From an uncultured Sulfuricurvum sp. (GTDB taxonomy: Bacteria; Campylobacterota; Campylobacteria; Campylobacterales; Sulfurimonadaceae): a DNA stretch of 64,000 nt. Below the pieces are notes generated by a model. The model was not told where the DNA came from. It worked only from the letters and a program-made list of their open reading frames with translations, and did no database searches. Shown here in pieces: positions 22,442 to 60,485 of this stretch (positions are counted from its first letter, which is position 1; the number at the start of each line of letters is the position of its first letter). The position numbers were made by a program, and so were the translations under genes. The DNA is taken from the NCBI GenBank assembly GCA_903844635.1, contig CAIMUF010000052.1, forward strand, positions 840 to 64,839. Reading direction: 5' to 3'.

Positions 22442-23863
22442 ATGACCAATATTATTCTGTGTGGCGGAAGCGGTACACGCCTTTGGCCGATTAGTCGAAC
22501 CCTTATGCCCAAGCAATTTGTAAAACTTTTTGGTGACACCCCAGGGCAGTCTCTCTTGCAACGCAATTCACCTCCCAAATCTCTTTTTCAACTTACCGTA
22601 GAGCGTAATATTCCTCTTTGCAGCGAACAATTCATTGTCTCTAATGCCGAGCAGTATTTTTTAGCTTTGGATCAACTTGGCGAAATGAATGCGCAAAGTA
22701 ATCACTACCTTCTTGAGCCTGTTGGCAGAAATACGGCTCCGGCGATTGCATTGGCTTGTATGGCACTTGATCCCGAAGAGATCGTTCTTGTAACACCCTC
22801 CGATCATCTCATAAAAAATCAACAATCTTATGCCCAAGCAGTTGAACGCGCGAAAGAGCTGGCATCGCAAGATTATCTCGTAACCTTCGGAATCACTCCA
22901 GCATTTGCTGAAACCGGATTTGGCTATATCGAAGCAGACAAAGAGAATGGCGAAGAAGTTGTAAGTTTTAAAGAAAAACCTGATTTTAATACTGCAACCC
23001 AGTACCTCAATGCCGGAAATTATTATTGGAACAGCGGGATGTTTTGCTTTAAAGCCGGAGTATTTTTAGAAGAGTTACGTGAACTTTCACCGCAGGTGTT
23101 CGAAACCTGTGCAGTAGCTTTTAAAAACGCAACGACCAACGGCATGATCCGTATAGCACATGACGATATGCTTTATATTCCCGAAGACAGTATTGACTAT
23201 GCCGTGATGGAAAAAAGCAATCGCGTCAAAGTCGTAGTAGCCAGCGATATAGAGTGGAGCGACGTAGGGAGTTTCGATGCTCTCTATGAAGAGCTGCCAA
23301 AAGATGCCAACGGCAACACAGTATGCGATAAGCACATCAGTATCGATAGTAAAAACAATCTCGTTCTCTGTGAAGGGCGTAAAATTGCAACCATTGACGT
23401 CGAAGATTTGATCATTGTTGATACAGGTGATGCTTTGCTTGTTTCGAAAAAAGGCTCATCTCAAAAAGTTAAAAACGTGGTCGCAGAACTTAAAAATCGT
23501 AATACCGAGCTTCATAACATCCACCTCACCGCTCACCGTCCATGGGGAACGTATACGATTCTAGAAGACACTCCCGGATATAAGATCAAGAGGATCGTTG
23601 TGCAGCCAGGAAAGCGCTTAAGTTTACAAAAACACTTTCACCGCAGCGAGCATTGGATTGTCGTTAGCGGTACAGCGACAGTTACTGTCGGGGATCAAAC
23701 GCAAATCATCCGCCCCAATGAGTCCACCTATATCAAAATGGGTGAGATCCATCGTCTCGCCAATGATGGGAAAATTCCAGTAGTTCTTATCGAAGCACAA
23801 GTCGGAGAATATACAGGCGAAGATGATATCGTTCGAATTAGTGATGAGTACAACCGCGCATGA
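22442..23863 (+). CDS. manC: Mannose-1-phosphate guanylyltransferase/mannose-6-phosphate isomerase
   Basis: GGSGTRLWP, EPVGRNTAPAI, WSDVGS, RPWG and C-terminal cupin. Confidence 0.95.
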   Translation: MTNIILCGGSGTRLWPISRTLMPKQFVKLFGDTPGQSLLQRNSPPKSLFQLTVERNIPLCSEQFIVSNAEQYFLALDQLGEMNAQSNHYLLEPVGRNTAPAIALACMALDPEEIVLVTPSDHLIKNQQSYAQAVERAKELASQDYLVTFGITPAFAETGFGYIEADKENGEEVVSFKEKPDFNTATQYLNAGNYYWNSGMFCFKAGVFLEELRELSPQVFETCAVAFKNATTNGMIRIAHDDMLYIPEDSIDYAVMEKSNRVKVVVASDIEWSDVGSFDALYEELPKDANGNTVCDKHISIDSKNNLVLCEGRKIATIDVEDLIIVDTGDALLVSKKGSSQKVKNVVAELKNRNTELHNIHLTAHRPWGTYTILEDTPGYKIKRIVVQPGKRLSLQKHFHRSEHWIVVSGTATVTVGDQTQIIRPNESTYIKMGEIHRLANDGKIPVVLIEAQVGEYTGEDDIVRISDEYNRA

Positions 23864-24651
23864 ACCAATTAAAAGCTATTTGGGCGTATCGTTATTTTAT
23901 TATCAGCTCTATCAAAACGGAATTTCGAAGTCGTTTTGCACGTAGCAGTTTAGGCGGTGTCTGGATGGTATTACATCCGCTAGCACAAGTGGCTATTTAC
24001 GCCCTCGTACTCTCAGCCGTCCTTGCTGCCAAACTTCCCGGTATTGACAACCAGTATGCCTATGCTATTTATCTGATGGCTGGGACACTTGGTTGGTCAC
24101 TGTTTGCTGAGGTGTTTGGACGAAGCTTGGGAGTATTTGTTGATAATGGCAATTTACTCAAAAAAATGGCATTTCCAAAAATCGCACTCCCTCTCATCGT
24201 CACGGGCAGTGCATTGGTCAACAACCTTCTCCTCTTTGGAGCAGTATTGGTCGTTTTTGGGATTCTTGGGCACATGCCTACTCTTATGCTCTTGTGGCTG
24301 CCTGTTCTAATTGCTGTAACGCTCGCATTGGCACTCGGGCTAGGTTTAGCGTTAGGTATTATCAATGTTTTTGTGCGCGATATCGGTCAGATCGTCCCGA
24401 TCATTTTACAATTTTGGTTTTGGCTCACCCCTGTCGTGTATGTCTCTACGATGATTCCTGCAAAATATCATGCGCTATTGATGCTCAATCCCATGAGCGG
24501 TATCGTCATGGGGTATCAAAACATCCTTGTATACAACAAAGCCCCAGATGTAAGCACGCTTCTTTATCCGGCTACAATCGCCATTGTAGCACTGTCGCTT
24601 GCCCTCTTTATGTATTTTCGTGCGAATGAAGAAATGGCGGATGCGTTATGA
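23860..24651 (+). CDS. wzm: O-antigen ABC transporter permease Wzm
   Basis: FRSRFARSSLGGVW, RDIGQIVP, WLTPVVY, LNPM. Confidence 0.92.
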   Translation: MNQLKAIWAYRYFIISSIKTEFRSRFARSSLGGVWMVLHPLAQVAIYALVLSAVLAAKLPGIDNQYAYAIYLMAGTLGWSLFAEVFGRSLGVFVDNGNLLKKMAFPKIALPLIVTGSALVNNLLLFGAVLVVFGILGHMPTLMLLWLPVLIAVTLALALGLGLALGIINVFVRDIGQIVPIILQFWFWLTPVVYVSTMIPAKYHALLMLNPMSGIVMGYQNILVYNKAPDVSTLLYPATIAIVALSLALFMYFRANEEMADAL

Positions 24652-24652
24652 T

Positions 24653-25153
24653 AATTTTTAATTTTGAATGCTTAATGTTGAATCAAAACGTAAGAATGAG
24701 CAAGTAGCATGAAGCAAGAAAATATTATCTTAGATAAATCATTTGCTTTTGCAGTGAGAGTTGTAAAACTCTATAAATATTTGTGTGATGAAAAACAAGA
24801 GTATGTTTTATCCAAACAGTTGTTGAGAAGCGGCACCTCCATCGGAGCCAATATCAATGAAGCTCAAGCAGCGCAGAGTACGAACGATTTTATCACCAAA
24901 ATGAGTATCGCAAGCAAAGAAGCGAGAGAAAGCAGATACTGGATAGATCTTTTAATTCAGACAGATTTTCTTGATTCCAGTGAACAACACACTCAAACAT
25001 TGCGAGGCGATATTGATGAGCTTATCAAAATGTTAACATCCATCATTAAAACAACGCAAGAAAGAAATAAAAAATGAATTCAAAATTAAAGATTGACCAA
25101 CGGGAATGCCCTGGGGTTCAGAATTCAGAATTAAACATTCAAAATTCAAAATT
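24653..25153. mobile_element. Four-helix-bundle gene cassette bounded by 31-bp heptamer-based inverted repeats
   Basis: Left arm 24653-24683 vs right arm 25123-25153 match 27/31; flanking (T)GAT direct repeat; excision restores ATG ATT TCG CCT (MISPVLE) overlapping the wzm stop. Confidence 0.65.
24709..25077 (+). CDS. Four helix bundle protein (TIGR02436 / 23S IVS-protein / bAvd-like)
   Basis: DKSFAFAVRVVKLY, SKQLLRSGTSIGANINEA, KMSIASKEARESRYW. Confidence 0.9.
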   Translation: MKQENIILDKSFAFAVRVVKLYKYLCDEKQEYVLSKQLLRSGTSIGANINEAQAAQSTNDFITKMSIASKEARESRYWIDLLIQTDFLDSSEQHTQTLRGDIDELIKMLTSIIKTTQERNKK

Positions 25154-26378
25154 GATTTCGCCTGTCCTCGAAATCAGTAACATCGGCAAAGCCTATCGTA
25201 ACTACGGTAGTGAGCTATGGCGTATCCTCTCGTGGTTCGGACTGCGTTTTAAACCCGTTCATGAGACATGGACACTCCAAAATATCAGCTTTAACATCGC
25301 ACCGGGTGAAGCGATCGGTGTTGTTGGGCAAAACGGTGCAGGCAAAAGCACCTTGCTCAAAATCATTACAGGCACTCTCAAGCCAAGTACTGGCAGTGTA
25401 ACGGTGCACGGTAAAATCGCCGCAATCCTAGAGCTGGGGATGGGATTTCACCCCGACCTTACAGGGCGACAAAATGCCTACCATTCTGCAGGACTTATGG
25501 GCTATACAAGCGCACAAATCGATGCAGTAATCGATCAAATTGAAGCATTTGCAGAGGTCGGAGAGTACTTCGATCAGCCGGTACGTACTTATAGTAGTGG
25601 TATGCAGATGCGTGTAGCATTTGCAACCGTGACCGCCTATCGTCCAGAGATTCTAATTGTCGATGAAGCTATGTCTGTCGGGGATGCCTATTTCCAGCAC
25701 AAAAGCTTTGACCGTATCCGACAGTTCCAGAGCGCGGGAACAACTCTCTTGCTTGTATCTCACGATCGCGGTGCTATTCAGGCGATCTGTGATCGTGCTA
25801 TTTTATTAGAGCAAGGGAAAGTGATCCGAGACGGTGAGCCCGAAGAAGTGATGGATTTTTACAATGCTCTCATCGCGGACAAGGAAAACAGCAAAATTGA
25901 GCAAGTAACACTTGACAATGGAAGAGTCCAGACGATCTCCGGAACAGGCGAAGCCAAAGTCGAAGATATTGGACTCTACAATGACAAAGGCGAAAAAGTA
26001 GAGTTTGTCGGTGTTGGTGATCCAGTAGAGTTACGAGTGAAAGTGAAAATATATCAAGATATTCCATTGCTCGTATTAGGATACGGAATTAAAGATCGCC
26101 TTGGTCAGGTGATGTACGGAACGAATACATGGCTGATGAAGCAAGTATTAGAAGATTTGAAAGCAGGTAATTTGTATAACTTTATAATTACATTTCCCAT
26201 CAATATTGGGGTTGGTAATTATTCAATTCAAACTGCTCTGCATAAACACGATACCCATTTATCTGTCAATTATGAATGGAAAGACTTAGCATTAGTTTTC
26301 AATGTTGTTAATATTGACAAGACTGCTTTTGTTGGATCAACATGGCACGAACCAAAAATAGAAGTTAAACTAATATGA
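25074..26378 (+). CDS. wzt: O-antigen ABC transporter ATPase Wzt with C-terminal carbohydrate-binding domain
   Basis: GQNGAGKST, YSSGMQMR, ILIVDE, C-terminal beta-sandwich; first 26-27 aa derive from the repeat arm. Confidence 0.93.
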   Translation: MNSKLKIDQRECPGVQNSELNIQNSKLISPVLEISNIGKAYRNYGSELWRILSWFGLRFKPVHETWTLQNISFNIAPGEAIGVVGQNGAGKSTLLKIITGTLKPSTGSVTVHGKIAAILELGMGFHPDLTGRQNAYHSAGLMGYTSAQIDAVIDQIEAFAEVGEYFDQPVRTYSSGMQMRVAFATVTAYRPEILIVDEAMSVGDAYFQHKSFDRIRQFQSAGTTLLLVSHDRGAIQAICDRAILLEQGKVIRDGEPEEVMDFYNALIADKENSKIEQVTLDNGRVQTISGTGEAKVEDIGLYNDKGEKVEFVGVGDPVELRVKVKIYQDIPLLVLGYGIKDRLGQVMYGTNTWLMKQVLEDLKAGNLYNFIITFPINIGVGNYSIQTALHKHDTHLSVNYEWKDLALVFNVVNIDKTAFVGSTWHEPKIEVKLI

Positions 26379-27682
26379 TACATAACAATTTTTACCGAGC
26401 TTTTGAAGAGAAATATTATGCTCCTCGGACAGTAATTAAAGAACTTCGAAAGCAATATTTATCCTTTGTTGAACAACTCATCCAGCATTATCCATCTGGT
26501 CAAACATATGATTTAGGTTGTGGTCGTGGTGAATGGCTTGAATTAATGCAGGAGCTTCAATTAACCCCCTATGGTGTTGATCTTGATGATGGCATGCTAC
26601 AAGGATGCAGAGACTTAGGATTGCCGGCTGAAAAAGGTGATGCGGTATCGTATCTTAAAACACTTGAATCGGAAAGTCACTTAGTGATTAGTGCATTTCA
26701 TGTTGTCGAACATATTTCATTTAGTGATTTGCAAGAAGTTGTCCAAGAAGCATTACGGGTTTTAAAGCCAGGCGGCTTGCTCATCATGGAAACACCTAAT
26801 CCTGAAAATATCAAGGTAGCCACGGCTAATTTTTATTTAGACCCGACACATGTTCGACCTATTCCGTCCCAATTACTCTCTTTTTTAACAGAACATTACG
26901 GTTTTGAACGGACAAAGATTCTCCGTCTTCAGGAATCACAAGAAGTACATCATACACTATCCATCACTCTTTCGCAGGTCATTAGTGGTGTGAGCCCAGA
27001 CTATGCAGTCATTGCCCAAAAACAAGCTAGTGGTGAGATCATGTCAAGCTTTAATGAGTTGTTTGATAAAGAATATGGTTTATCTTTAGAAATGTTAGCA
27101 GATAAATTTGAAAATCGTTTATTAAAAATCGAAACCCAAACTAATGAAGCAAACTCGAAAGCTGATAAAGCATACGCACAGGCTAGTGAAGCAAGCGTAC
27201 AAGCCAATGAAGCAAATTCTAGGGCAACCAAAGCAGAACAAAGTGCAAATAATGCATGGCAACATTATCACATGATCGCAAATAGTACTTCTTGGAAGAT
27301 GACCAAGTCATTGCGATTGGCAGGTAAATTTACAAGATGGTTAGTCTATGGCTCTTATCATTGGCTCACATTTTCACCGACCAGCAGACCGCGTAGAAGC
27401 ATTAAAAATTTAGTATTAAAAATGAAAAATTATATTAATTCAAACCCAAAATTAAAAATGAAAATTATTAGTATCTTAAATCGTTTTCCAAAACTGAAAG
27501 CTAGGCTTAAAAGAGTTAGTCAAGACAACTATTTTCTATCAGACAATTCAAAATTGACCGCATGGAATGCCCTTGGGTGCAAAAGTCAAAATTTAGAATT
27601 ATCGCACTTGTCTCCAGAAGCCAAAAAAATATACAATGATTTGAAATATGCGATAGAGCAAAAGCAAAAGGCATCAAAATGA
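26375..27682 (+). CDS. SAM-dependent methyltransferase with coiled coil (WbdD-like O-antigen terminator)
   Basis: DLGCGRGEWL, FHVVEH, ETPNPEN, LDPTH; Ala/Gln-rich coiled segment; follows wzt. Confidence 0.8.
   Translation: MIHNNFYRAFEEKYYAPRTVIKELRKQYLSFVEQLIQHYPSGQTYDLGCGRGEWLELMQELQLTPYGVDLDDGMLQGCRDLGLPAEKGDAVSYLKTLESESHLVISAFHVVEHISFSDLQEVVQEALRVLKPGGLLIMETPNPENIKVATANFYLDPTHVRPIPSQLLSFLTEHYGFERTKILRLQESQEVHHTLSITLSQVISGVSPDYAVIAQKQASGEIMSSFNELFDKEYGLSLEMLADKFENRLLKIETQTNEANSKADKAYAQASEASVQANEANSRATKAEQSANNAWQHYHMIANSTSWKMTKSLRLAGKFTRWLVYGSYHWLTFSPTSRPRRSIKNLVLKMKNYINSNPKLKMKIISILNRFPKLKARLKRVSQDNYFLSDNSKLTAWNALGCKSQNLELSHLSPEAKKIYNDLKYAIEQKQKASK
27541..27603 (+). repeat. Solo heptamer-arm element inserted in-frame near the methyltransferase C-terminus
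   Basis: Shares ATTGACC-N4-GGAATGCCCT-N-GGGT and heptads with 25078-25152; TATC direct repeats 63 bp apart. Confidence 0.7.
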
Positions 27683-30600
27683 GAATCGTCATAGACCTTC
27701 AAGGAGCCCAAACTGAAAGTCGCTTTAGAGGAATTGGTAGATATTCACTCTCACTGGCTAAAGCGATAATAAGAAATGCAGGCGATCATGAGATATGGCT
27801 GGTTCTTAATGGTGCATTTCCTGAAAGTGTTTTAGCATTTAGAGAAGAGTTTGAAGGGATGGTGTCTCAAGGGCGAATTAGAGTTTTTCAAGCTCCCCTT
27901 CCCGTAGCTGAACACGATCCTGCAAACTCAAACAGAGCAAGAGTCGCAGAGCTGATACGAGAGTATTTTATGGAGCAGCTCAACCCTGATGTTGTCCTAG
28001 TAATGAGTCTTTTTGAGGGGTATCTCGATGATGCAGTAACATCAGTAAGTCGATTTACATCGAGCTACAAAACAGCGGTAATACTGTATGATCTCATACC
28101 TTATATAGATGAAGAGAGATATTTACCCTCCAGCACGCAAAAAGAGTACTATCATAAAAAAATCAACTCACTCCAAAAAGCAGATATCCTTTTAGCTATC
28201 TCAGAGGCTTCTAAAATAGAGTGTGAGAATGTACTTCACATACCATCCGAAAAAGTTACGAACATTTCTACAGCAGTCGATGAGACCTTTGAGCCAAAAG
28301 AACTCTCAGCAGATGAAAAAAAGACCCTTTTTGCCAAATACGACATCACCAGAAAGATGGTGATGTACGCTCCAGGCGGTTTTGATATTCGTAAAAACTT
28401 TGAAAATCTTATCGTTGCTTATAGCGAACTACCCCAACTTTTACGAGACGATCATCAGCTAGTCATTGTTAGTAAGGTTCAAGAGGGCGATAAACTTCAC
28501 TTAGAAAATATCGCCAAAAATACAAGACTAAAAAAAGACGAACTCATCATCACAGGTTATGTGAGCGATGAAGAACTCATGGCGTTTTACAGCACATGTA
28601 CACTTTTTGTATTTGCTTCGCTTCATGAAGGGTTTGGATTGCCTACACTTGAAGCGATGGCTTGCGGGGCTGCGGTGATAGGCTCAAATACCACAAGCGT
28701 ACCTGAAGTAATAGGATATGAAAAAGCTCTTTTTGATCCGAAATCAGTGCATTCTATTACCGATAAAATTCAAGAAGTGCTCGAAAATAAACAATTTTTG
28801 AAAGAGCTTCAATCACATTCCTTGCAGCAATGTAAAAAGTTCTCATGGGACGAGAGTGCAAAAAGAGCAATAGCTTCAATGGTTAATCTGCAAACATCGG
28901 ACAAAACTACTTATAAAGACTCTACAAAAAGAAAACTTGCGTATTTCTCTCCACTTCCTCCACAACGAAGCGGCATTAGTGACTATAGCAAAGAGTTGTT
29001 ACCATACTTAAATGCTTATTATGACATTACATTGATCGTAAATAGCGATGCATGTGAGAATATTTTTAATGAGATGGAATTTGAGAAAAAAAATGTTGCT
29101 TGGTTTGAAAATAATATAAAGAGTTTTGACAGAATTTTATACCATATAGGGAATAACCCTTTTCATACACACATGCTAGATGTACTGAAGCAACATTCTG
29201 GGGTGGCAATGCTTCATGATTTCTTTTTGAGCAGTTTGTATGCTTACGAAGAGACTGTATTAGGACAGCAGGATTTTTGGAAAAAAGCTATTTTTGAATC
29301 TCACGGTTTTGCTGCTCTTAAAGATAGATGTATTTCATATGGTGAAGAAAATGCAAAGCAAAAATATCCTGCCAATATTGAGGTCATGCAGAATGCCAGA
29401 GGTTTGATTTTTCATTCGAATTATTCAAGACATTTGTTGAATCAATGGTATGGTGAGCACAATCAAGTCCGAATGTTTCAGGTACCTTTCTTGAAATATA
29501 TGCCAAATGGTTATGATAAACAAGAAATACGAAAATTAATGAGATACGATAAAAGTGATTTCATAGTGTGTTCATTCGGTTATTTAGATTCCACTAAACT
29601 AAATCATAAGCTTTTGGAAGCCTGGAGAACGTCGAAGCTTTCATCATTAGGAAACTGCAAACTCATTTTTGTTGGGGAAAATAATGATGGTGATTATGGA
29701 CAACAAATTTTAAAAACCATCCAAAAGAGTAAAAATATTATTATCACGGGATGGACGGACAGTGATACATACGCAAACTATTTAAAAATAGCTGATGCAG
29801 GGGTACAATTGCGTACTATGTCCAGAGGTGAAACATCGGCAGCTGTCCATGATTGTATGGCTTATGCTTTGGCAACCATTGTTAATGCAAATGGCTCTTT
29901 TGCTGACATCCCAAAAGATTCGGTGTATATGATAGAAGATGAATTTGAAATCAAAACTCTGGTTGAAGCCCTTGAAAAACTTTATGATAATGAAAACTTT
30001 CGGAAAGAGTTATCTCAAAAAGCTGCAAAAACTATCAAAGAGCAACATTCTCCAGAAGTCTGTGCAAAAATGTATTTTGAAGCAATAGAAGCTTCTTATC
30101 AAAAACACCCCGTAAATGATTTGATCTCAAGCATAGTTGATCTAAAAGAATTTCGCTCTATTGAAAATGATGAAACTAAGTTGTTACATATTTCTAAAGC
30201 AATATCGCGCACTGTAGAAGTCCCATGTAGACAAAAACAAATACTTGTAGATGTATCGGCTATTTGCAGAAACGATTTGAAAACAGGTATCGAAAGGGTT
30301 GTCAAAGCTCAGCTATTGGAATTAATAAAAAATCAACCTGCAGGATACCGAGTAGAACCAATATATCTGGCATATGAAAATGGACAATGGGTCTATAGGT
30401 ATGCCAGAGATTATGCTTTATCGCTTTTAGAAATACAAAATGTACAGATGCAAAATGAGTTAATAGATATGCACAACGGTGATGTATATTATTGTGCAGA
30501 TTTTTTTAGGGATGGCATTGCCCAAGCTATAAAACAGGGATTGTTTGCTGAGATGAAGATGCAAGGTATTCAGCTGAACTTTGCAGTTTATGACATTTTA

Positions 30601-31395
30601 CCAATCCTGCATCCGGAGTTTTTTCCAATAGGAACAAGTAAGCCTCACCATGTTTGGCTCGAAGCAATAGCATCTGTTTCTGCTAATCTGATATGTATTT
30701 CAAAATCTGTAGCGGATGAAGTAAAAAATATATTGAAAGAGCCTAAGCTCAAAATATCTTATAATCATTTGGGTGCAGATATAGAAAGTTCAATTCCATC
30801 AGCTGGACTACCCGATGATGTACAAACCTCGCTTGTTACGCTTAGATCAAAACCGACTTTTTTGTTGGTAGGGACAATTGAACCGCGAAAAGGACATTTA
30901 CAAGTGTTGGCAGCTTTTGAAAAACTGTGGAGCGAGGGTTGTGATCTAAACCTCGTCATCGTTGGAAATGAGGGTTGGAAACTTTTGCTTGAGAATGAAC
31001 GAAGAACAATTCCTCAAATAGTTTCAAAAATGAATGCTTTAAAAAGCGAGGCTAAATTCTTTTGGCTTGAAGGCATCAGCGATGAGTACTTAGAAAAAGT
31101 GTATGAAGCCTCTACTTGCCTTATCGCCGCCAGCGAAGGGGAAGGGTTTGGATTGCCGCTTATTGAGGCAGCTCAGCATAAATTGCCAATCATTGCAAGG
31201 GATATCCCCGTATTTCGTGAAGTGGCTGGTAAATATGCTTATTATTTTGAAAATAGTAACGATTCCTCTGTTTTAGCAAATGTTGTCATCTCTTGGCTTG
31301 AACTTTATAAAGATGATCGTCATCCAAAATCAGATGCTATGCCGTGGTTGACGTGGGAAGAGAGTGCAAAACAGTTATTGGGTTGTATAAAATGA
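27679..31395 (+). CDS. Multi-domain GT4 glycosyltransferase (WbdA-like polymerase)
   Basis: 1238 aa; three GT-B modules with EGFGLP (twice) and SRGETSAA motifs. Confidence 0.85.
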   Translation: MRIVIDLQGAQTESRFRGIGRYSLSLAKAIIRNAGDHEIWLVLNGAFPESVLAFREEFEGMVSQGRIRVFQAPLPVAEHDPANSNRARVAELIREYFMEQLNPDVVLVMSLFEGYLDDAVTSVSRFTSSYKTAVILYDLIPYIDEERYLPSSTQKEYYHKKINSLQKADILLAISEASKIECENVLHIPSEKVTNISTAVDETFEPKELSADEKKTLFAKYDITRKMVMYAPGGFDIRKNFENLIVAYSELPQLLRDDHQLVIVSKVQEGDKLHLENIAKNTRLKKDELIITGYVSDEELMAFYSTCTLFVFASLHEGFGLPTLEAMACGAAVIGSNTTSVPEVIGYEKALFDPKSVHSITDKIQEVLENKQFLKELQSHSLQQCKKFSWDESAKRAIASMVNLQTSDKTTYKDSTKRKLAYFSPLPPQRSGISDYSKELLPYLNAYYDITLIVNSDACENIFNEMEFEKKNVAWFENNIKSFDRILYHIGNNPFHTHMLDVLKQHSGVAMLHDFFLSSLYAYEETVLGQQDFWKKAIFESHGFAALKDRCISYGEENAKQKYPANIEVMQNARGLIFHSNYSRHLLNQWYGEHNQVRMFQVPFLKYMPNGYDKQEIRKLMRYDKSDFIVCSFGYLDSTKLNHKLLEAWRTSKLSSLGNCKLIFVGENNDGDYGQQILKTIQKSKNIIITGWTDSDTYANYLKIADAGVQLRTMSRGETSAAVHDCMAYALATIVNANGSFADIPKDSVYMIEDEFEIKTLVEALEKLYDNENFRKELSQKAAKTIKEQHSPEVCAKMYFEAIEASYQKHPVNDLISSIVDLKEFRSIENDETKLLHISKAISRTVEVPCRQKQILVDVSAICRNDLKTGIERVVKAQLLELIKNQPAGYRVEPIYLAYENGQWVYRYARDYALSLLEIQNVQMQNELIDMHNGDVYYCADFFRDGIAQAIKQGLFAEMKMQGIQLNFAVYDILPILHPEFFPIGTSKPHHVWLEAIASVSANLICISKSVADEVKNILKEPKLKISYNHLGADIESSIPSAGLPDDVQTSLVTLRSKPTFLLVGTIEPRKGHLQVLAAFEKLWSEGCDLNLVIVGNEGWKLLLENERRTIPQIVSKMNALKSEAKFFWLEGISDEYLEKVYEASTCLIAASEGEGFGLPLIEAAQHKLPIIARDIPVFREVAGKYAYYFENSNDSSVLANVVISWLELYKDDRHPKSDAMPWLTWEESAKQLLGCIK

Positions 31396-33677: not shown

Positions 33678-33693
33678 AAAAAAGAGTCCTAAG

Positions 33694-34641: not shown

Positions 34642-35008
34642 TGAAGTCGTTCGCTATATTATCAATGGGCTTTTTGCAACATTAATCCATTTTTCCATCC
34701 TGACGTTCAATATTGAAATATTACATATCAGTTCAGCAGGATTTGCAAATTTTATTGCGGCGATTTTTGGAATTACTGTTTCCTTTATGGGAAGTAGATA
34801 TTTTGTATTTCAAAACCACCAAGGGACGATATGGCATCATGCTGTTAAATTTGGAGCGCTTTATGGCGGTATAGCCGTATTGCATGGTTTCATATTGTTT
34901 GTATGGACGGACCACTATCATCTGAGTTATCAGATCGGATTTGTACTTGCAACAGGTATGCAAGTGACATTAAGTTATTTTGGAAATAAAAAGGTGGTAT
35001 TCAAATGA
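34634..35008 (+). CDS. GtrA family flippase
   Basis: RYIINGLFAT, SFMGSRYFVF, SYFGNKKVVF; four TM segments. Confidence 0.85.
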   Translation: MRNEVVRYIINGLFATLIHFSILTFNIEILHISSAGFANFIAAIFGITVSFMGSRYFVFQNHQGTIWHHAVKFGALYGGIAVLHGFILFVWTDHYHLSYQIGFVLATGMQVTLSYFGNKKVVFK

Positions 35009-35613: not shown

Positions 35614-35622
35614 AGGAATGAG

Positions 35623-36798: not shown

Positions 36799-36809
36799 GG
36801 AAAGATAAA

Positions 36810-37679: not shown

Positions 37680-37704
37680 TACTTTTTAATCAATTTTACT
37701 TTAA

Positions 37705-39632
<1,928 letters not shown>

Positions 39633-39643
<11 letters not shown>

Positions 39644-45601: not shown

Positions 45602-45626
45602 TAAATTCTTTTCAAATTGGTGCAAT

Positions 45627-52233: not shown

Positions 52234-53555
52234 CCCAACAAGAAGCCTTAAAGCAAGAAATTTTAGCCAAGACCAAAGAGTATTATGAATTGGTTCATAA
52301 ACCGATGCAAGATAAAGAGTTTGTAGCCGGTAAAAGCCGCGTCAATTATGCAGGACGTGTATTCGATGAAAAAGAAATGATCAATCTCGTCGACAGTTCA
52401 CTCGATTTTTGGCTTACCTATGGTGATTATTCGAAACAATTTGAGAAAAAATTAGCAGACTATCTCGGAGTACGTTGGACATTTCTCGTCAACAGCGGCA
52501 GTTCGGCAAACCTTCTCGCCTTTTATGCCCTTACATCACCGTTGTTAGGTGATCGTCAGGTTAAACGCGGAGATGAAGTGATCACCGTTGCAGCAGGTTT
52601 TCCAACCACGGTTGCTCCTGTAGTTCAATATGGTGCTGTTCCCGTTTTTGTTGATATGGAATTAACCCATTTCAATATCGATGTAACTCAGTTTGAAGCA
52701 GCGCTAAGCCCAAAAACTAAAGCAATCATGATCGCCCATACCCTCGGTAATCCGTTTAACCTTCGAGCTGTCAAAGAGTTTTGTGATAAACACAACCTTT
52801 GGTTGATCGAGGACAACTGTGACGCACTCGGTTCTACATACGAAGGCAAACCAACAGGGACATGGGGAGACATCGGAACATCAAGCTTTTACCCACCGCA
52901 CCATATGACCATGGGTGAAGGTGGTGCGACATACACCGACAATCCACTCCTTAAAAAAATCATGCTCTCCATGCGTGACTGGGGACGCGACTGCTGGTGT
53001 GAAAGCGGTATTGATAACACCTGCGGATGCCGATTCTATCAAAGTTTTGGAACCTTGCCAAAAGGGTACGATCATAAATACGTGTATAGCCACTTCGGTT
53101 TCAATCTCAAAGTTTCCGATATGCAAGCGGCAATCGGTGTCGCACAACTCGAAAAATTCCCGACATTTGTTGAAAAGCGCAAAGAAAACTTCACAAAACT
53201 CTACAATGGGCTAAAAGGGGTAGATGCTCTAATCCTGAATGCTGCTACACCAAACAGTGATCCAAGCTGGTTTGGCTTTATAATCACCCTAAAAGACGGC
53301 GTACAATTTAGCCGTAATGAACTCGTAGAACATCTCGAAAACGCTAATATTCAGACCCGCAATCTTTTCGCCGGAAATATGCTCCGTCATCCGATGTTTG
53401 ATAGCATGGTACGAGATAGTGACTATAGAGTGGTTGGTGATTTACCGAATACAGACAAAATCATGAATGACAGTTTCTGGATCGGGCTTTATCCGGGGAT
53501 GGGTGATGAAGCAATTAAATATATGACAGAGACTATTAAAGCATATGTCAAATAG
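52230..53555 (+). CDS. rfbH: CDP-4-keto-6-deoxyglucose 3-dehydratase (E1)
   Basis: NSGSSANLLA, EDNCDALG, SFYPPHHMTMGEGG, DCWC...C Fe-S motif. Confidence 0.92.
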   Translation: MTQQEALKQEILAKTKEYYELVHKPMQDKEFVAGKSRVNYAGRVFDEKEMINLVDSSLDFWLTYGDYSKQFEKKLADYLGVRWTFLVNSGSSANLLAFYALTSPLLGDRQVKRGDEVITVAAGFPTTVAPVVQYGAVPVFVDMELTHFNIDVTQFEAALSPKTKAIMIAHTLGNPFNLRAVKEFCDKHNLWLIEDNCDALGSTYEGKPTGTWGDIGTSSFYPPHHMTMGEGGATYTDNPLLKKIMLSMRDWGRDCWCESGIDNTCGCRFYQSFGTLPKGYDHKYVYSHFGFNLKVSDMQAAIGVAQLEKFPTFVEKRKENFTKLYNGLKGVDALILNAATPNSDPSWFGFIITLKDGVQFSRNELVEHLENANIQTRNLFAGNMLRHPMFDSMVRDSDYRVVGDLPNTDKIMNDSFWIGLYPGMGDEAIKYMTETIKAYVK

Positions 53556-53601
53556 GTCTTTATACAAAATGCGTTTTCTGCAAGAATGGGATTGTCAAAC
53601 T

Positions 53602-54498
53602 CTAAAGATCAAAATAGGTTTGACATTTTTCAACAAAGCGTATAACCGACTCATTTGATTCACGCTCTTGTTTCTCCATATACAGCAACAGCAAAGGACG
53701 GGTTTGAACTGCATACTCTACGTCATTAAATCCATACGCGATTCCGTAACGATTCTCTTCATTCGGCTGCCATTGCTCTTTAGTAATACCTTTTTCAGGG
53801 ATAACAATAGGAATGCATCCGCACATGACTGCATAAATGTGATACATAGTATATGTATCATATGATATACAATATTGTACTTGATTAAAAACCTTTGCCG
53901 TATCTTTATGCGATAACTTATCAATTAATATTGAATTAGTTATATTATGTTCAATCTCTCTCTTATATCCTTTTCGAAGCAAGTAACATGTCCCTTCTCG
54001 CGTATCAGGATTTGTTATTTTATACACATCAGATCTTTGCGAAATAATATGTAAATGATTATTAGAATATTTGTTATATCGACTATCATCAAATGCTTTA
54101 TCATAATAAAAAAATAGATCATTTGTTCCAAAATTTATCTTACCGCCATTATTAAATCCCGGTTTATGCAATAACCATCGAACCACATTTTTAGCTCTCA
54201 ATGGATTGCCAACAACTACTTCAGGGTATACAATAACTGCACCTTCTAAATCTGCATAATTTGCAGTTGGTGTATTAAGTCTATAATTTTTTTTAAATCC
54301 GTATTTTATTTGCTTACGAAAATATTTAATAAATAAATAAATTGTTTTAAAGGGATTAGTACAATTTAAAGCAGGCTTAAAAAATGGCCAAAGATATGAT
54401 TCATGGCCGAGGAGATTGAGTCTATCGCACAACTGATGAAGAACAACGATTCCACCTGCATTATCGTCATATCCTGGTGCAATTATAATAAATTTCAT
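53602..54498 (-). CDS. Putative glycosyltransferase-like protein (WavQ-like)
   Basis: GGIVVLHQLCDRL, YPEVVVGNPL, VRWLL, AVMCGCIPIVIP. Confidence 0.6.
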   Translation of the reverse strand: MKFIIIAPGYDDNAGGIVVLHQLCDRLNLLGHESYLWPFFKPALNCTNPFKTIYLFIKYFRKQIKYGFKKNYRLNTPTANYADLEGAVIVYPEVVVGNPLRAKNVVRWLLHKPGFNNGGKINFGTNDLFFYYDKAFDDSRYNKYSNNHLHIISQRSDVYKITNPDTREGTCYLLRKGYKREIEHNITNSILIDKLSHKDTAKVFNQVQYCISYDTYTMYHIYAVMCGCIPIVIPEKGITKEQWQPNEENRYGIAYGFNDVEYAVQTRPLLLLYMEKQERESNESVIRFVEKCQTYFDL

Positions 54499-54521
54499 AA
54501 ATACAGAGCCATATTTCAACT

Positions 54522-55361
54522 TTATTCTAAATTTTCTAAATCAGTTTTATGCGTACTAATTCCATTTTCACATATAAACCGATTTTCTTCTTTATTTTTG
54601 ATCATCTTTTCCCAATAAAATGCACCAATATCTCTCTCATTGTACTTGTGCCATAAATGGAATTGATTCGCTACGTTTTTGCACGATTTGATTTCAAGCC
54701 CATATGCACGAAAACGCCAATCTAAATCCGTATCATCACTGAGTGATGTTTCACAGTATCCCTCATCAAATCCGTTGAGAGTAAGCATATCTTTTCGGAA
54801 ACACGAAAAATTACATCCCAAAATACTCGTGTTACGTTTGCGAAATTTTGACAACAATGAATAAAGCCATCCTGTCGGAGAGAGATAAACACCGTACTCG
54901 TATTTCGAATTTTTCTCAAATGCCAATCCAATATATTTATAAAGCCGTTTTTCGATATCCAGGATATCAAGTATTCCTGATTTTATCTTTTGAGTCAAAA
55001 ATTCTGACAAATTGACACGCCGACCAGAGAGAACCGTCCTGCTTTTAGCCAAAGCAACATGTGCTTCAACAAAAGTCGTATAAGGAACACAATCTCCATC
55101 GATAAAAATCAAATATTCCCCCGAACTGGCAACGATTCCGTTGTTTTGGGAACGGGCTTTTTGTACACCGATATCCTCTTGAGTCGTATGTTTAACATCC
55201 AAATCTTTAATATTCTCAATATACTCTTTCATTTGAGGATTTTCACCATCTTCGGCGATAATTACTTCAAAATTTTTATAGGTTTGACGTTTCAAAGCGG
55301 TAATAATTAATGAAAGCGATTGAATATCTTTATATACGGCAATGATGACACTAACTCTCAT
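54522..55361 (-). CDS. GT2 glycosyltransferase
   Basis: AEDGE, FIDGDC, NGFDE; paralog of 45627-46466. Confidence 0.87.
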   Translation of the reverse strand: MRVSVIIAVYKDIQSLSLIITALKRQTYKNFEVIIAEDGENPQMKEYIENIKDLDVKHTTQEDIGVQKARSQNNGIVASSGEYLIFIDGDCVPYTTFVEAHVALAKSRTVLSGRRVNLSEFLTQKIKSGILDILDIEKRLYKYIGLAFEKNSKYEYGVYLSPTGWLYSLLSKFRKRNTSILGCNFSCFRKDMLTLNGFDEGYCETSLSDDTDLDWRFRAYGLEIKSCKNVANQFHLWHKYNERDIGAFYWEKMIKNKEENRFICENGISTHKTDLENLE

Positions 55362-56440
55362 AGATTCTCCAAAACTTTTTGTAATTCTAAAAACTGCTTT
55401 TGACTTTCGAATTGCTTCAATGCTTTTGTCTTTCCAGCATTGGCAAATTTTTGTCTTGTATCGCTGTTTTGACACAGTAACCTCAATTTTTCTCTTAAAT
55501 CTGCCACATCAAAAGTTTTAAAAAGTAGCCCATTTTCATTATCATCAATGATGTCCAACGGCCCGCCACTGTCACTGGCAACAACACACACACCGCACAT
55601 CATCGCCTCGATCAGCACCAGTCCAAATGTCTCATTTTCAGTTGCCAAAACCATCACGTCACACAGCTGCATCAATGTTTGCACTTCACGGGTAAATCCG
55701 GTGAAAACTGCGATATCGACATAATCGTTTTGGAGCTTTAGAAGATATGCTTCATCCATAGCAGCTCCTATAACTAAAGCTTTTGCATCAATCCCATTAT
55801 TAACTAACTCTTTTACCGCTTGCAGTAGGATATGCTGCCCTTTTGGTTCTTCGATCCGCCCGACGATTCCGACCGTAAACGCCTTTGCGAGTCCCATCTG
55901 TTGACGACGTTCATTTCGCTCATCTGATGAGATTACCGCTGGTTGTTCCGCACCGATGTAGAGCACATCAGTTACTGGACGGATATCGTTAGGAATAAAT
56001 TTCTCAATTTGCAATTTTACCTGATGGGTGACGGCCAAGATCATGTCGAGATTTTTATACAAAAAGCGGTGGTAAAAATCATCTTTGAAACGGGTCATCG
56101 TCATGTGCCGTGATTGTACTACTCGAGGTTTACGTTTAGAAATTAGTTTAGCCATAATAGCCAAGGGAAGATCTTTTGTCCAATGCAGATGAAGGACATC
56201 AATTGCTTCATCATCGATAATTTTCGCAAGGTGGCGGGCACTCAACCATGACAAAAATACACTTCGACGTTTTAGTGTGAAATAAGTATAAGTATTATCT
56301 TCGTAATAACTTTTCAACTTTCCTTTTTCATTAATAACACTAATACACTGCTCACCCAAATAACGCGAAGCGCGCATCATATACAGCTCCAATCCGCCGA
56401 GATCAGGAGAAAGGCACAGTTCACAAATTTTATTTGTCAC
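55358..56440 (-). CDS. GT4 glycosyltransferase
   Basis: VGRIEEPKGQ, ETFGLVLIEAM. Confidence 0.88.
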   Translation of the reverse strand: MTNKICELCLSPDLGGLELYMMRASRYLGEQCISVINEKGKLKSYYEDNTYTYFTLKRRSVFLSWLSARHLAKIIDDEAIDVLHLHWTKDLPLAIMAKLISKRKPRVVQSRHMTMTRFKDDFYHRFLYKNLDMILAVTHQVKLQIEKFIPNDIRPVTDVLYIGAEQPAVISSDERNERRQQMGLAKAFTVGIVGRIEEPKGQHILLQAVKELVNNGIDAKALVIGAAMDEAYLLKLQNDYVDIAVFTGFTREVQTLMQLCDVMVLATENETFGLVLIEAMMCGVCVVASDSGGPLDIIDDNENGLLFKTFDVADLREKLRLLCQNSDTRQKFANAGKTKALKQFESQKQFLELQKVLENL

Positions 56441-57191
56441 GTTTGCTCTTTTGTTCGAGATTCAATTCATACAATTTGATGTATTTGTAAAAATTGGTCG
56501 CCATATGTGAAAAGGCGATAATGAGTCCTGCATACCCATCTAAAAATCCTCTTTTTAACACATAGGTTCGGAAAAACGAATACAAACCATTGAAAAATGC
56601 TTTGGCAGGCGAGGAAGATCTTTTACCGACATTGTCATTTGCAAAAAGAGTCGAGTAACGATCCAGTTTGATGATAAATTCAGAAATACTCGTGTAGCTG
56701 TAATGCTTCATATTTCCCTCTAACAATGCAATTTTCATCCCCTCATCCATAATACGTTCGTGCACATAGTTGTTATTAAAAGAAGTAATTCCTCTATGAT
56801 ACAGTCGACGAATTTTTTGATTATTCCAGCCACTGTGACGGATCGCTATCTCTTTGTAATACGCCAGAGAATTGATCATATAGACAGTATTCGAGTCAAA
56901 TGTATCATTTTTTAATATATTCAACAATCCTATATCAATCTCTTCATCACTGTCAATGCTCAATATCCAATCGTACTTTGCAAAACTTGCCGCACGGTTT
57001 TTAGTCGTGCCAAATCCATCAAAATTTCCTTCGATCAGATGAACATTTGGATATTCACGTGCTATGTCTAACGTTCCGTCGGTTGAACCGTTATCATGCA
57101 CGACCACATCCTCAAACTCTCGCAAACTTTCCAAGGTTATACGGATAGTACGTGCTCCGTTTTTAACAATCATTACAGCCGATACATTCAT
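56430..57191 (-). CDS. GT2 glycosyltransferase (LPS core, KdtX-like)
   Basis: DNGSTDGT, LSIDSDE, VHER, KRGFLDG. Confidence 0.87.
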   Translation of the reverse strand: MNVSAVMIVKNGARTIRITLESLREFEDVVVHDNGSTDGTLDIAREYPNVHLIEGNFDGFGTTKNRAASFAKYDWILSIDSDEEIDIGLLNILKNDTFDSNTVYMINSLAYYKEIAIRHSGWNNQKIRRLYHRGITSFNNNYVHERIMDEGMKIALLEGNMKHYSYTSISEFIIKLDRYSTLFANDNVGKRSSSPAKAFFNGLYSFFRTYVLKRGFLDGYAGLIIAFSHMATNFYKYIKLYELNLEQKSKRDK

Positions 57192-57192
57192 C

Positions 57193-57924
57193 TTAACTCT
57201 TTATCATTTTAAGTACAGTTTTAAACCAAAAACCCAACTGTTTTAGGGGTTTAAACAATTCATCAGGACTTTTAAGCGCATCCCCTTTTATACGATACAC
57301 TAATCCGCCGATTCCTTCCCATGAGGGATTGAGGGCATTACCAATTCGAAAGATATACTCATAATGTTCACGTGCCAGTGTAACAGCTGCATCATTGTAT
57401 TTTCCATAGGGCAATACGAACGATTCGACACGGTAGCCCAGTTTCTCTTCAAGGATAACTTTGGAGCCAAAAATCTCACGTTCCAAATCCACGCCCTCAT
57501 CACTGAGATTGATATGATTCATAGAGTGCGACGCAATAACCACGTGACCGCGTTGAACCATCTCTCGTAGCTCCACATATGTACAAAATGGAGCAAAAGT
57601 TTGATAATTTTCATAAATTTCATGATGCTTTAGTGAAAGACGTTTTTCCGGTGCAATATTGGTATCATCGAGGATATAGGCAGAGGGGACAGCAAGCAAA
57701 GCTTTTAAGTTATATTTCTTTAGCAAAGGAAATACATAGTGATAAAAATCATAATACGCATCATCAAATGTAAGACAAATCGAAGAGCTTTGAAACTCTT
57801 CCCCCGGAAAAACTGTAACATAGCGTTCGCTAATCAGACGTAGATGCGCATCCATCATCGAGTCTGAATTCGAAAGGGGTAAATCATCGCTATTAATATG
57901 GTGATACATTACTACTGGAATCAT
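57193..57924 (-). CDS. Polysaccharide deacetylase family protein
   Basis: MYHH, TFDDAY, SHSMNH, PYG. Confidence 0.85.
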   Translation of the reverse strand: MIPVVMYHHINSDDLPLSNSDSMMDAHLRLISERYVTVFPGEEFQSSSICLTFDDAYYDFYHYVFPLLKKYNLKALLAVPSAYILDDTNIAPEKRLSLKHHEIYENYQTFAPFCTYVELREMVQRGHVVIASHSMNHINLSDEGVDLEREIFGSKVILEEKLGYRVESFVLPYGKYNDAAVTLAREHYEYIFRIGNALNPSWEGIGGLVYRIKGDALKSPDELFKPLKQLGFWFKTVLKMIKS

Positions 57925-58025
57925 AATTCCCTTTCTAAAACCTTTAGTCTCATTATACAAAATTTACACTATTTTTGAAATTACAGCTATAATACATAAT
58001 AATATTTACATACAAAGGAATACAG

Positions 58026-58265
58026 ATGTCAGCTACATTACGTAAAAATTTCGTTTTTGATGCCATAGTTGTCTCTCATTTGGAAGAAATTGCTCGTGTT
58101 GAAGGACTTTCATTGACAAAAGCAATTAATAATATGATTGAGCAACGATACGAAGAGATAGCAAAGCAAAAGAGGCTTGAGGCTGCAATGAGTATCGTAG
58201 GTAGTGCTTCTGGAGTATTTGGGAATCTAACGATTCAAGAAATTAAAGCCCAAATGGATGTTTAA
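58026..58265 (+). CDS. Putative antitoxin (RHH-like)
   Basis: 79 aa, RKNFVFD beta-strand followed by helices; overlaps the PIN gene. Confidence 0.65.
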   Translation: MSATLRKNFVFDAIVVSHLEEIARVEGLSLTKAINNMIEQRYEEIAKQKRLEAAMSIVGSASGVFGNLTIQEIKAQMDV

Positions 58266-58686
58266 GCGACTATTTTTGGATGCCAACATTTTGGTGGACT
58301 TTGTAGACGATATGAGACCATCTCATATTCAGAGCAAAAAAATAATCATTGATGCAATACAGAAAGATGTCCACCTTTTTACTAGCTGTGATATTGTAAC
58401 AACGGTTTATTATCTTAGTGCTAAAATAGACAAAAAGCAGGCACTCAATGAAATTACAAAAATCAACCGTTTTTGTAAAATTATCGACTTTTCAAACACC
58501 GATGTAGAACAAACCTGCGATTTAATGGCTCAAAATAGTGATTTCAAAGATTTAGAAGATACCATCCAATATATCCTCGCTAAAAAAGCTTTATGCGATT
58601 GTATTATCTCCAATGATAAAAACTTTTTGAGTCCTGATATTCTTCTCCTTAACAGTGAACAATTTTGTGAAAGGTTGGGATTATGA
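58258..58686 (+). CDS. PIN domain toxin (VapC-like)
   Basis: FLDANILVD, DLEDTIQY, IISNDKNF. Confidence 0.87.
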   Translation: MFKRLFLDANILVDFVDDMRPSHIQSKKIIIDAIQKDVHLFTSCDIVTTVYYLSAKIDKKQALNEITKINRFCKIIDFSNTDVEQTCDLMAQNSDFKDLEDTIQYILAKKALCDCIISNDKNFLSPDILLLNSEQFCERLGL

Positions 58687-59450
58687 AAATTTCATTGACC
58701 ACTCCACTTCAATATACATATCTCGCCAGCTCCTTTGAATCGATTCAAAAAATCTTTGCCGACGATAATCGCTCTATCCACAAAGCACGCAATGAACTGA
58801 AAATTATTGAGATAGAGGGAATCAAAACGGTCGTCAAATCGTTCAAAGTACCTCATCTGCTTAACCGTATTGTGTATACTTTTTTTCGAAAAAGCAAAGC
58901 GTACAAATCGTACCATAATGCACTTCACTTACGGGAATTAAACATCTCTACCCCCGAACCCATTGCGTTGATCGAATTTTTCGAATCAAATCTTTTAGGG
59001 GAGAGTTATTTTATCTCAGAATTTTTCGACTACGATTTCACCATCCGTACCCCGCTTCTTGAACCCTTGGAAGATAGAGAAGCCATTTTTACCGCCTTCG
59101 CTGCTTATACCTACACCTTGCACCAAAAAGGAATATGGCATCTCGATTATTCGCCCGGTAATATTCTCATTAAACGAACAGAGAGTGGATATCAATTTAG
59201 TATTGTTGACATCAATCGAATGGAGTTTAGAGAAATTGGCCCGCTACAGGGTTGTGAAAACTTTAATAAACTCTGGGCGAGCGATGAAGAACTGGAAATT
59301 ATGGGGCGGGAATATGCAAGGTTGAGCAGTTTTAATGTGGCAGTCACCATCGCCGAAATGAAGCGTCATAATGATGCCAACAAGCGAGTTAAGAATTTCA
59401 AGAAAAAGCTTAAGAAAGTGCTAAAAGGCGATTTTTCAATTCTTTCTTAA
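58683..59450 (+). CDS. Lipopolysaccharide kinase (Kdo/WaaP family)
   Basis: VVKSFK, TPEP, HLDYSPGNIL, VDINRM. Confidence 0.82.
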   Translation: MKISLTTPLQYTYLASSFESIQKIFADDNRSIHKARNELKIIEIEGIKTVVKSFKVPHLLNRIVYTFFRKSKAYKSYHNALHLRELNISTPEPIALIEFFESNLLGESYFISEFFDYDFTIRTPLLEPLEDREAIFTAFAAYTYTLHQKGIWHLDYSPGNILIKRTESGYQFSIVDINRMEFREIGPLQGCENFNKLWASDEELEIMGREYARLSSFNVAVTIAEMKRHNDANKRVKNFKKKLKKVLKGDFSILS

Positions 59451-60381
59451 CGTTCTCAAACATCTCTGCGCGTCCCGCAGGATTTTGAGGAATCATAAAA
59501 TGGTGTTGTCTCTCTTCTTCTCCAATGCTTTTCCATCGTAACGCGGACGCAAACCGTGAATCTCCAAAAAAAGTAAATGTTTCACATCCTGCTGCACTTG
59601 CCAGATGATACGTCCCCGTTGAGGTGCTGACAAACAGTTTAAACCCACTGAGCAACGCTGCGAAATCAACCACACTTCCGCGAGAACGATAGAGGATAAC
59701 CCTGCTCTCACCCAGTAGCTCTTTGGCTTCTTCATAAAGTTTTTCTTCATCAGGACCAAACGTCATCACGACATCAATCTTTTCATCCTCTTGAGCAATC
59801 CATACCAACTCGATGTATTCACGAAGCGTCCAGTTGGCATCCGATGAGCCCCCGAAACCGGGATGGAACGCGATGACGGGTTTAGTAATAGTGTATTCTT
59901 CACAAAATGCATTGAAAATATCCTCGTCAAAATGCAGGAGCGGTTTGGGAAAATCAAGATTTATATCTCTAAAAAGAGCTTTTGTAAGTTCGAGGTTGTA
60001 TTCAAACTCCGCCATTTTTACTTCACTTCGACGTTGCGTGACACGGCGATTGTAAAAAATCTGAGCGATTTTGGTAGCGGGGGCGATTCGGATGGGGATG
60101 CGGGCAATTAATTGTGCCAGTCCCACACGGGTATTGGAAAAAAGGGTGATTGAAGCGTCGATACGGGCTTGTTTGATTTTAAATGCCAACGCTAGAATAT
60201 CCTCACCGCCATCCAGAATCACCTCATCGATAAAATCGCAGGATTCGGCGAGTTTGCGATTGAGCGGTGCGACAAGGACGATGATACGGTTAGAGGTATT
60301 ATGATGTTTGAGGACATACAGTGTTGGCAGTGCCGTGATAAAATCGCCCAGTTTGTCATTACGCACTACCAATATATTCAT
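59410..60381 (-). CDS. GT9 family heptosyltransferase-like protein
   Basis: RNDKLGD, FHPG, STSTGTYHLA. Confidence 0.85.
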   Translation of the reverse strand: MNILVVRNDKLGDFITALPTLYVLKHHNTSNRIIVLVAPLNRKLAESCDFIDEVILDGGEDILALAFKIKQARIDASITLFSNTRVGLAQLIARIPIRIAPATKIAQIFYNRRVTQRRSEVKMAEFEYNLELTKALFRDINLDFPKPLLHFDEDIFNAFCEEYTITKPVIAFHPGFGGSSDANWTLREYIELVWIAQEDEKIDVVMTFGPDEEKLYEEAKELLGESRVILYRSRGSVVDFAALLSGFKLFVSTSTGTYHLASAAGCETFTFFGDSRFASALRWKSIGEEERQHHFMIPQNPAGRAEMFENVKKELKNRLLALS

Positions 60382-60412
60382 TACTTGCCCTAATCATTTA
60401 TTATCGTTGTAT

Positions 60413-60485
60413 CGTCATTCACCCGAGGGCACTTCGCCCGCGAATGCGGGAATCCAGCTAGACTCCCGCATTCGCGGGAGTGACG
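60413..60485. repeat. Inverted REP pair; left REP interrupted by a 17-bp insert
   Basis: GTCATT[CACCCGAGGGCACTTCG]CCCGCGAATGCGGGAATCCAGC followed by inverted GTCACTCCCGCGAATGCGGGAGTC. Confidence 0.85.

Follow-up and report, generated by a model that had tools for sequence, protein, structure and literature searches.

A short GC-rich motif in candidate hairpin modules of three low-copy palindromic repeat families of Sulfuricurvum

The O-antigen locus of an uncultured Sulfuricurvum sp. lies on a 64,000-nt stretch of contig CAIMUF010000052.1 (assembly GCA_903844635.1; a 2.67-Mb draft genome with 39.8% GC, here G000), which was analysed at its full length and is called the window below. The locus includes manC and the series wzm, a four-helix-bundle cassette, wzt and an O-antigen methyltransferase gene, and a dimer of repetitive extragenic palindromes (REPs) is found further along, at 60.4 kb. 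The 11-nt motif TGCCCTNGGGT (the box) matches the window exactly four times: in manC (22538-22548, minus strand), in the right arm of the cassette (25107-25117, plus strand), near the 3' end of the methyltransferase gene (27568-27578, plus strand) and in one unit of the REP dimer (60421-60431, minus strand). A sequence-only reading of this DNA had reported these copies, all of which exist exactly at coordinates off by at most 1, and had proposed that they mark a recognition site or scar of a nuclease or recombinase, or else one minimal element nested in other repeats. The number of matches expected in the window is 0.05, and four or more were reached in 0 of 100 dinucleotide shuffles. The relaxed palindrome RCCCNNGGGY matches five times against 0.83 expected; the additional match (GCCCGAGGGT, 12885-12894) occupies the final codons of a reading frame, with a REP following ~25 nt downstream, and is possibly a chance occurrence.

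The sequence-only reading held that the motif occurs only in inserted DNA, and this is the case for all four copies: each match falls within a precisely bounded extra segment that is missing from relatives. The segments measure 39 nt (manC), ~24 nt (cassette arm), 24 nt (methyltransferase 3' end) and 17 nt (REP). Its view that these segments are nested in other repeats or genes also stands, in the form of short, precise insertions. Relatives have both a CGTC-type REP and a run of ATTCAAA-type heptads in versions that contain or lack the module, at sites that are orthologous or homologous. In every insert, one of the two boundaries is 0-3 nt away from the box. Comparison of empty and filled sites revealed no target-site duplication at any of the four inserts; the indels are seamless and their flanks are not duplicated, unlike miniature inverted-repeat transposable elements with their terminal inverted repeats and target-site duplications.

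The dimer at 60.4 kb (60413-60485, no strand assigned) comprises two CGTC-tagged REPs arranged head to head, its sequence reading CGTCATT-CCCGC-GAAT-GCGGG-AATCCAGC ... CCCGC-ATTC-GCGGG-AGTGACG. The tag is seen at 60413-60456 (tCGTCatt...cccgcgaatgcggg), one of 62 CGTC-tagged matches in the genome. One REP unit of the dimer is a long form in which a 17-nt module (CGAAGTGCCCTCGGGTG; 60420-60436, minus strand) separates GCGGG from AAT. REPs of this type have an 8-9 bp stem, a 4-5 nt loop and a 3-bp tail, and the short form agrees with this layout: its predicted fold, ATTCCCGC-GAAG-GCGGGAAT, has an 8-bp stem and a 4-nt loop (-8.9 kcal/mol, z = -3.4), and it is this stem that the module of the long form interrupts. 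The orthologous intergenic dimer in three other genomes of the genus, G002 (94% identical over a 701-nt region), G008 and G033, lacks exactly 17 nt (CACCCGAGGGCACTTCG). A second filled and empty pair consists of a module-bearing REP in G008 and a plain REP on contig C55 of G000, and entire long-form units, too, can be present or absent where G000 has an empty site. The source genome has six long-form REPs among ~64 REP loci, the other ~58 being short, and the long form (GCGGG-CGAAGTGCCCTYGGGTG-AAT) amounts to 19 copies in 6 of the 66 genomes of the genus. Within a REP the module occupies one position only, adjoining either the CGTC side or the CCAGC side, and in the 66 genomes it was not found outside REPs. 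Slippage between direct repeats was rejected as the origin of the indel, given that CGGG...CGGG would delete 15 nt, not 17.

Two further observations concern the REPs themselves. The loops of the dimer (60437-60479) differ in concert from those of the corresponding locus in G002, being GAAT and ATTC here and GAAG and CTTC there; the two units thus stay complementary, which suggests whole-dimer pairing or homogenization within the dimer. Elsewhere in the genome (contig C34, 20537-20580), the hairpin of a REP variant is enclosed by a second, outer stem, formed by AGGGCACT on the upstream side and, on the downstream side, by AGTGCCCT, which is part of the module.

The two matches in the middle of the O-antigen locus belong to a GC-rich core set in AT-rich heptad runs. 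An ATTCAAA-type run (25077-25153, plus strand) belongs to the right arm of the four-helix-bundle cassette and is interrupted by a ~24-nt core (ACCAACGGGAATGCCCTGGGGTTC; 25096-25119, plus strand, boundary uncertain by 1-3 nt), which the annotation places within the 5' end of the wzt reading frame. A metagenome contig (L117) with the same layout of wzm, four-helix-bundle, wzt and methyltransferase genes conserves the run without the core. Near the 3' end of the methyltransferase gene, a 24-nt core (ACCGCATGGAATGCCCTTGGGTGC; 27557-27580, plus strand) is read in frame as TAWNALGC within a second run (27545-27603, plus strand; NSKL..KSQNLEL) that is native to this methyltransferase subfamily. Homologues on L117 and two further sequences (L119 and L120) keep the run, encoding NSKL-KIQN-LEL, and miss exactly 24 nt, so that a 63-bp "arm" was rejected as the inserted unit; the core is also present in a fourth homologue, on metagenome contig L115. 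The last ~200 nt of the gene (27470-27682) are nearly identical to L115 while the proteins are only 67% identical, a pattern that indicates a putative mosaic 3' end produced by recombination.

The consensus of this core is ATTG/ACC-GNAG-GGAATRCCCTTGGGTGC/AAAA (slashes mark the boundaries) within ATTCAAA-type runs, with two copies in the window and five in another genome (G044). Several of the G044 copies are at contig ends. One copy of the heptad-plus-core element (found at L051, L053 and L057) is in frame in a loop of RmlB (QNSKLTEGNALGCKIQNSKL), and further copies are found at the 3' ends of accessory genes or beyond them, examples being an uncharacterized 357-aa open reading frame (ORF; L053) and a 299-aa ORF (L057) upstream of a small nucleotidyltransferase-like ORF. 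The element possibly marks where small gene cassettes of polysaccharide loci end. When the G044 consensus is folded as single-stranded DNA, the motif forms the 3' strand of a predicted hairpin.

The manC insert is a 39-nt in-frame segment (ACCCCAGGGCAGTCTCTCTTGCAACGCAATTCACCTCCC; 22538-22576, plus strand) translated as TPGQSLLQRNSPP, and its first 11 nt give the motif when read on the minus strand. Of 27 orthologues in the genus, 25 lack this insert and only those of G000 and G002 have it; their 13 residues, located between FGD and KSLFQ, read TPGQSLLQRNSPP and TPGQSLLQRNSLS, respectively. The insert is identical at 34 of 39 nt between these two genomes though the genes are only 71.7% identical; conversion between the two alleles is an unlikely source of the 34 identical nucleotides since the adjacent flanks differ. 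The G002 allele and that of a further genome (G054) are 89.7% identical and differ by exactly the 39-nt gap. The insert is widespread in ManC alleles of the Campylobacterota, with the variants TPGQ, TPGH and APGQ. Its GC-rich DNA, including ACCCCAGGGCA, is kept in manC genes of 29-34% GC (Sulfurimonas and metagenomes) and has decayed in an Arcobacter allele.

Other Campylobacterota carry unrelated classes of insert in the same ManC loop (22520-22590 of the window), namely TKETPDGHFKD, LEESAEHKDEK, QDNEKS and HKKNGDD, and this loop is a hot spot of length variation. In a manC-like fragment of another genome (G051:C1:1729926, L072; open frame of 137 aa), the same codon position holds a degenerate version of the insert (FDASGQPLFPSNLPSNKSLFQ).

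The manC insert is a member of a two-hairpin family of 39-44 nt elements, here termed F1, with the consensus CACCCCAGGGTGGTCTCTCTGGCTTCGCCATTCACCTTCTC. A covariance model (R1) built from five copies retrieves 26 copies in 15 of the 66 genomes of the genus, 23 of them within open frames, on one strand or the other, that span 100 aa or more. Most copies are translated from the opposite strand as E-K-V-N-G-E-A-R-E-T-T-L-G-C; the manC copy is read as TPGQSLLQRNS. In the order, 1-4 copies occur in 6 of 301 genomes, and none of the 301 is a high-copy source of F1. The two helices are well defined by compensatory change: the proportion of paired cells is 93.7%, compared with 78.9% in shuffles, none of which (0 of 500) reaches that value, there are 31 double-change cells against 9.7 in shuffles, and slid controls pair at 49% or less. 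In helix 1, pair 4-15 is CG in 11 copies and UA in 10, and pair 5-14 is AU in 11, CG in 6 and GC in 3. These covarying pairs are the outer letters of the motif, so that the box in F1 is a self-complementary mini-hairpin of which only CCCTGGGG is fixed. The exact 11-mer is peculiar to the manC subfamily of F1.

Three F1 copies lie outside the window on contig C50 (2501-5957, minus strand), in an RHS/YD-repeat gene, where they are read as EKVNGEARDTTLGC, EEVNSKARESTLGG and EKVNGEARETTLGC. The reading frame of this gene breaks exactly at the middle copy (4096-4139), which may be a frameshift or a pseudogene junction.

Each of the four inserts is part of a unit longer than the motif, and every such unit is conserved in its own right within the genus. 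How far the three kinds of insert are related depends on the pair compared. The REP module and the heptad core have TGCCCTTGGGTG in common, and the best G044 core matches the REP module at 17 of 17 positions with one 4-nt gap, ACCGAAG(GGAA)TGCCCTTGGGTGC. Shuffle tests gave p = 0.0015 for the REP module against the arm core and p = 0.0005 for the manC insert against the arm. In a profile search (nhmmer against 3000 shuffled decoys), the long-form REP profile scores the arms at 5-7.7 bits against a decoy maximum of 3.7; the alignment of the arms covers the 12-nt box only, and F1 does not rise above the 3000 decoys, giving no extended homology over the three families. At the consensus level all three share only CCCTNGGG, F1 having CCACCCTGGGGTG with TG...T confined to the manC subfamily. 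These comparisons make homology of the REP module with the heptad core probable, and F1 would be at most a distant relative of the two, its relation to them being unproven. Pure coincidence is unlikely for the REP module and heptad core and possible for F1.

These results do not bear out the proposal of one minimal element, as the inserted units of 17, 24 and 39-44 nt have just 8-12 nt in common, the 17-nt module never leaves the REP and the outer motif bases of F1 covary instead of being conserved. The suggestion of a scar is also unlikely, because the same sequence occurs amid unrelated flanks; the 17-nt sequence recurs in many REPs, and relatives show no larger element at these sites. A footprint left by the tip of a terminal repeat is a formal possibility.

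A recognition site was the remaining proposal of the sequence-only reading, and the genome-wide counts make a general one, or a methylation site, improbable. The whole genome has six exact matches to TGCCCTNGGGT against 1.3-1.6 expected (Markov orders 1-5), two of them outside the window, and the signal is therefore one of local clustering and not of genome-wide enrichment. One outside match (C74:192032) is a second REP with the identical 17-nt insert, and the other, on contig C32, is an ordinary coding site conserved in two relatives; the excess over expectation is entirely in repeat copies. In the 60 other genomes of the genus examined, the motif outnumbers its reversed control a few-fold. 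Two of these genomes (G003 and G031) have 14-17 matches each, for which a motif-bearing repeat was rejected, as 20 of 20 contexts read are unrelated coding sites with no repeat, many of them GAT GCC CTT GGG TTT (D-A-L-G-F). Forty more matches from the genus with N = C, G or A lie in ordinary-looking coding DNA, with the exception of one terminator-like hairpin. Almost all of the 60 matches read from the 65 other genomes of the genus are therefore of this ordinary kind. Placement in ordinary coding DNA, which the sequence-only reading had named as evidence against its proposal, is thus mostly what the genus presents, and it tells against a general recognition site.

The same reading had looked to co-occurrence with REP-associated tyrosine transposases (RAYTs), which was rejected. 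The genome has no match to the Y1 transposase family PF01797, leaving the head-to-head dimer with no such enzyme, and the family is found in 21 of 66 genomes of the genus as against 6 of the 15 that carry F1, indicating no association between the two. A search of the window against Rfam returned only a tRNA.

We consider that the box is best explained as the GC-rich centre (CCC-NN-GGG plus flanks) of hairpin modules in three low-copy families of REP-like, non-autonomous palindromes whose long and short copies exchange sequence, a reading to which we assign a probability of about 0.5. Hairpin modules would be gained and lost at fixed positions in their host repeats, with long and short copies of one host repeat exchanging sequence by ectopic gene conversion or annealing. 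Alternatively, the route could be whatever trans-acting machinery moves CGTC-type REPs. The modules would accumulate in the window because the O-antigen locus is horizontally exchanged, as exemplified by the methyltransferase 3' end shared with L115, and because this AT-rich locus tolerates small in-frame inserts in surface loops and at protein termini.

Several points weigh against this interpretation. The exchange between repeat copies is one that we infer, with no conversion tract demonstrated, and the homology that REPs (~30 nt) and heptad runs could provide for classical recombination is small. In manC, G000 and G002 have different bases immediately next to the insert, a difference for which simple homologous exchange offers no explanation. 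The homology of F1 to the other two families has no statistical support beyond the box, and the box occupies different predicted folds in the three families, so that one shared structural role is not supported by the models. The 12-nt identity between REP module and heptad core would also fit a shared protein-recognition box.

The strongest of the other explanations, possible and clearly less probable, is that a single trans-acting DNA enzyme (for example, a single-strand transposase of the HUH/Y1 type, or another nickase or recombinase) recognizes or cleaves the box and mobilizes all three families, which corresponds to the recognition site proposed in the sequence-only reading. The distance of 0-3 nt between the box and one insert boundary would fit such a site, and the seamless indels without target duplication resemble peel-and-paste transposition. 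An enzyme of this kind could also account for the 12-nt identity that joins otherwise different modules, for the retention of ACCCCAGGGCA in manC genes of only 29-34% GC, for the exact 39-nt difference between the closely similar G002 and G054 alleles, and for the differing flanks of the 34 nt identical between G000 and G002, which argue against simple homologous exchange. The distribution of PF01797 runs counter to it, however, as do the covarying outer bases of the F1 box with only CCCTGGGG fixed. The insertion contexts are also unlike one another (GCGGG^AAT, ATTG^AAAA and manC codons), the 17-nt module is confined to REPs, and copy numbers are very low, at 1-6 per genome, with F1 in as few as 6 of the 301 genomes of the order.

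More doubtful is the view that coincidence has been added to homology, the arm cores being copies of each other and the REP and manC matches reflecting a preference for CCC/GGG in stems under a motif chosen post hoc. It would agree with the restriction of the shared consensus to CCCTNGGG, with F1 reading CCACCCTGGGGTG and TG...T seen in the manC subfamily alone, with profiles that detect nothing past the box, and with just six matches genome-wide. Against this, the 12-nt identity of the 17-nt and 24-nt modules has a chance of ~1e-5 per pair by our own rough estimate, all 17 nt align with the G044 core across one gap, the shuffle tests gave p = 0.0005-0.0015, and four of four matches fall within indels.

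Slightly more doubtful again is a stronger form of the enzymatic explanation, according to which the mobile unit is a 17-24 nt GC-rich nano-module, CGAAG(GGAA)TGCCCTYGGGTG, inserted seamlessly and site-specifically into REP stems and heptad runs by a putative trans-acting enzyme that reads the TGCCCTYGGGTG box, with the in-frame 39-44 nt F1 as a relative using the same box. If true, the nano-module would be, to our knowledge, among the smallest mobile DNA modules described. A role of the palindrome RCCCNNGGGY as a target of restriction-modification or methylation, or as a regulatory operator of the O-antigen locus, is very improbable, for although its core is palindromic and three matches cluster in the polysaccharide locus, there is neither genome-wide enrichment nor avoidance beyond the repeat copies, the matches, found in coding sequence of both strands, show no regular placement with respect to promoters, and the sites are missing from relatives with the same genes.

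For annotation, the odd peptides in ManC, RmlB, Wzt, methyltransferase and RHS proteins are translated repeat DNA, and the "cassette arm" and "solo arm" of the sequence-only reading become AT-rich runs with a nested 24-nt core. This free-living member of the Campylobacterota has small palindromic repeats whose long and short forms appear to convert into each other at orthologous positions, and the 39-nt element keeps its GC-rich sequence in very AT-rich manC alleles of more than one genus, the named homologues coming from Sulfurimonas and Arcobacter. The long and short forms, together with the retained manC element, bear on the spread of CGTC-type REPs, which have no known transposase. The finding reveals no new nuclease site or defence system.

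CGTC-tagged REPs have been described with intragenic units and without a linked transposase (Di Nocera, De Gregorio and Rocco 2013, BMC Genomics 14:522, PMC3733652). The host repeat at 60.4 kb resembles them in its CGTC tag, 8-bp stem, 4-nt loop and 3-nt tail, in its head-to-head dimers with no linked transposase and in the intragenic copies elsewhere in the locus, and differs in that ~10% of copies carry a 17-nt module splitting the 3' arm after 5 bp. In the literature, we found no description of REPs with long and short forms set apart by a nested 17-nt module, of a related 24-nt core nested in heptad runs or of the 39-44 nt two-hairpin F1, and no paper linking Sulfuricurvum with REPs. Intragenic REPs and in-frame palindromic repeats are themselves already known (PMC3733652). 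Among the latter are the Rickettsia palindromic elements, selfish DNA whose insertions into protein genes keep the reading frame (Ogata et al. 2000, as cited in PMC3733652). To judge by that citation, F1 and the heptad core are similar in being small dispersed palindromes translated in frame on either strand, in ManC, RmlB, RHS proteins and a methyltransferase, including the loops of ManC and RmlB and the 23 of 26 F1 copies in open frames. On the same basis, they differ in length class (24-44 nt as against ~100-150 nt), in having no sequence similarity, in their very low copy number and in their free-living campylobacterotal host.

RAYT/REP systems and IS200/IS605 peel-and-paste elements also involve hairpins that are gained and lost seamlessly with no target duplication; in contrast to those systems, the repeats described here have no Y1 transposase in the genome and no genus-wide association with one, and no guide or cleavage tetranucleotide was identified. 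The AT-rich mitochondrial genomes of yeasts contain mobile GC clusters and translational-bypass ("byp") elements, which are short GC-rich palindromic inserts, some of them in coding regions, with presence/absence polymorphism. The Sulfuricurvum modules parallel these elements as short, GC-rich and palindromic inserts in AT-rich DNA, coding regions included, that are likewise present in some relatives and absent in others. They differ in their bacterial host, in the absence of any target duplication at the sites compared and in being in-frame, stop-free inserts that are presumably simply translated.

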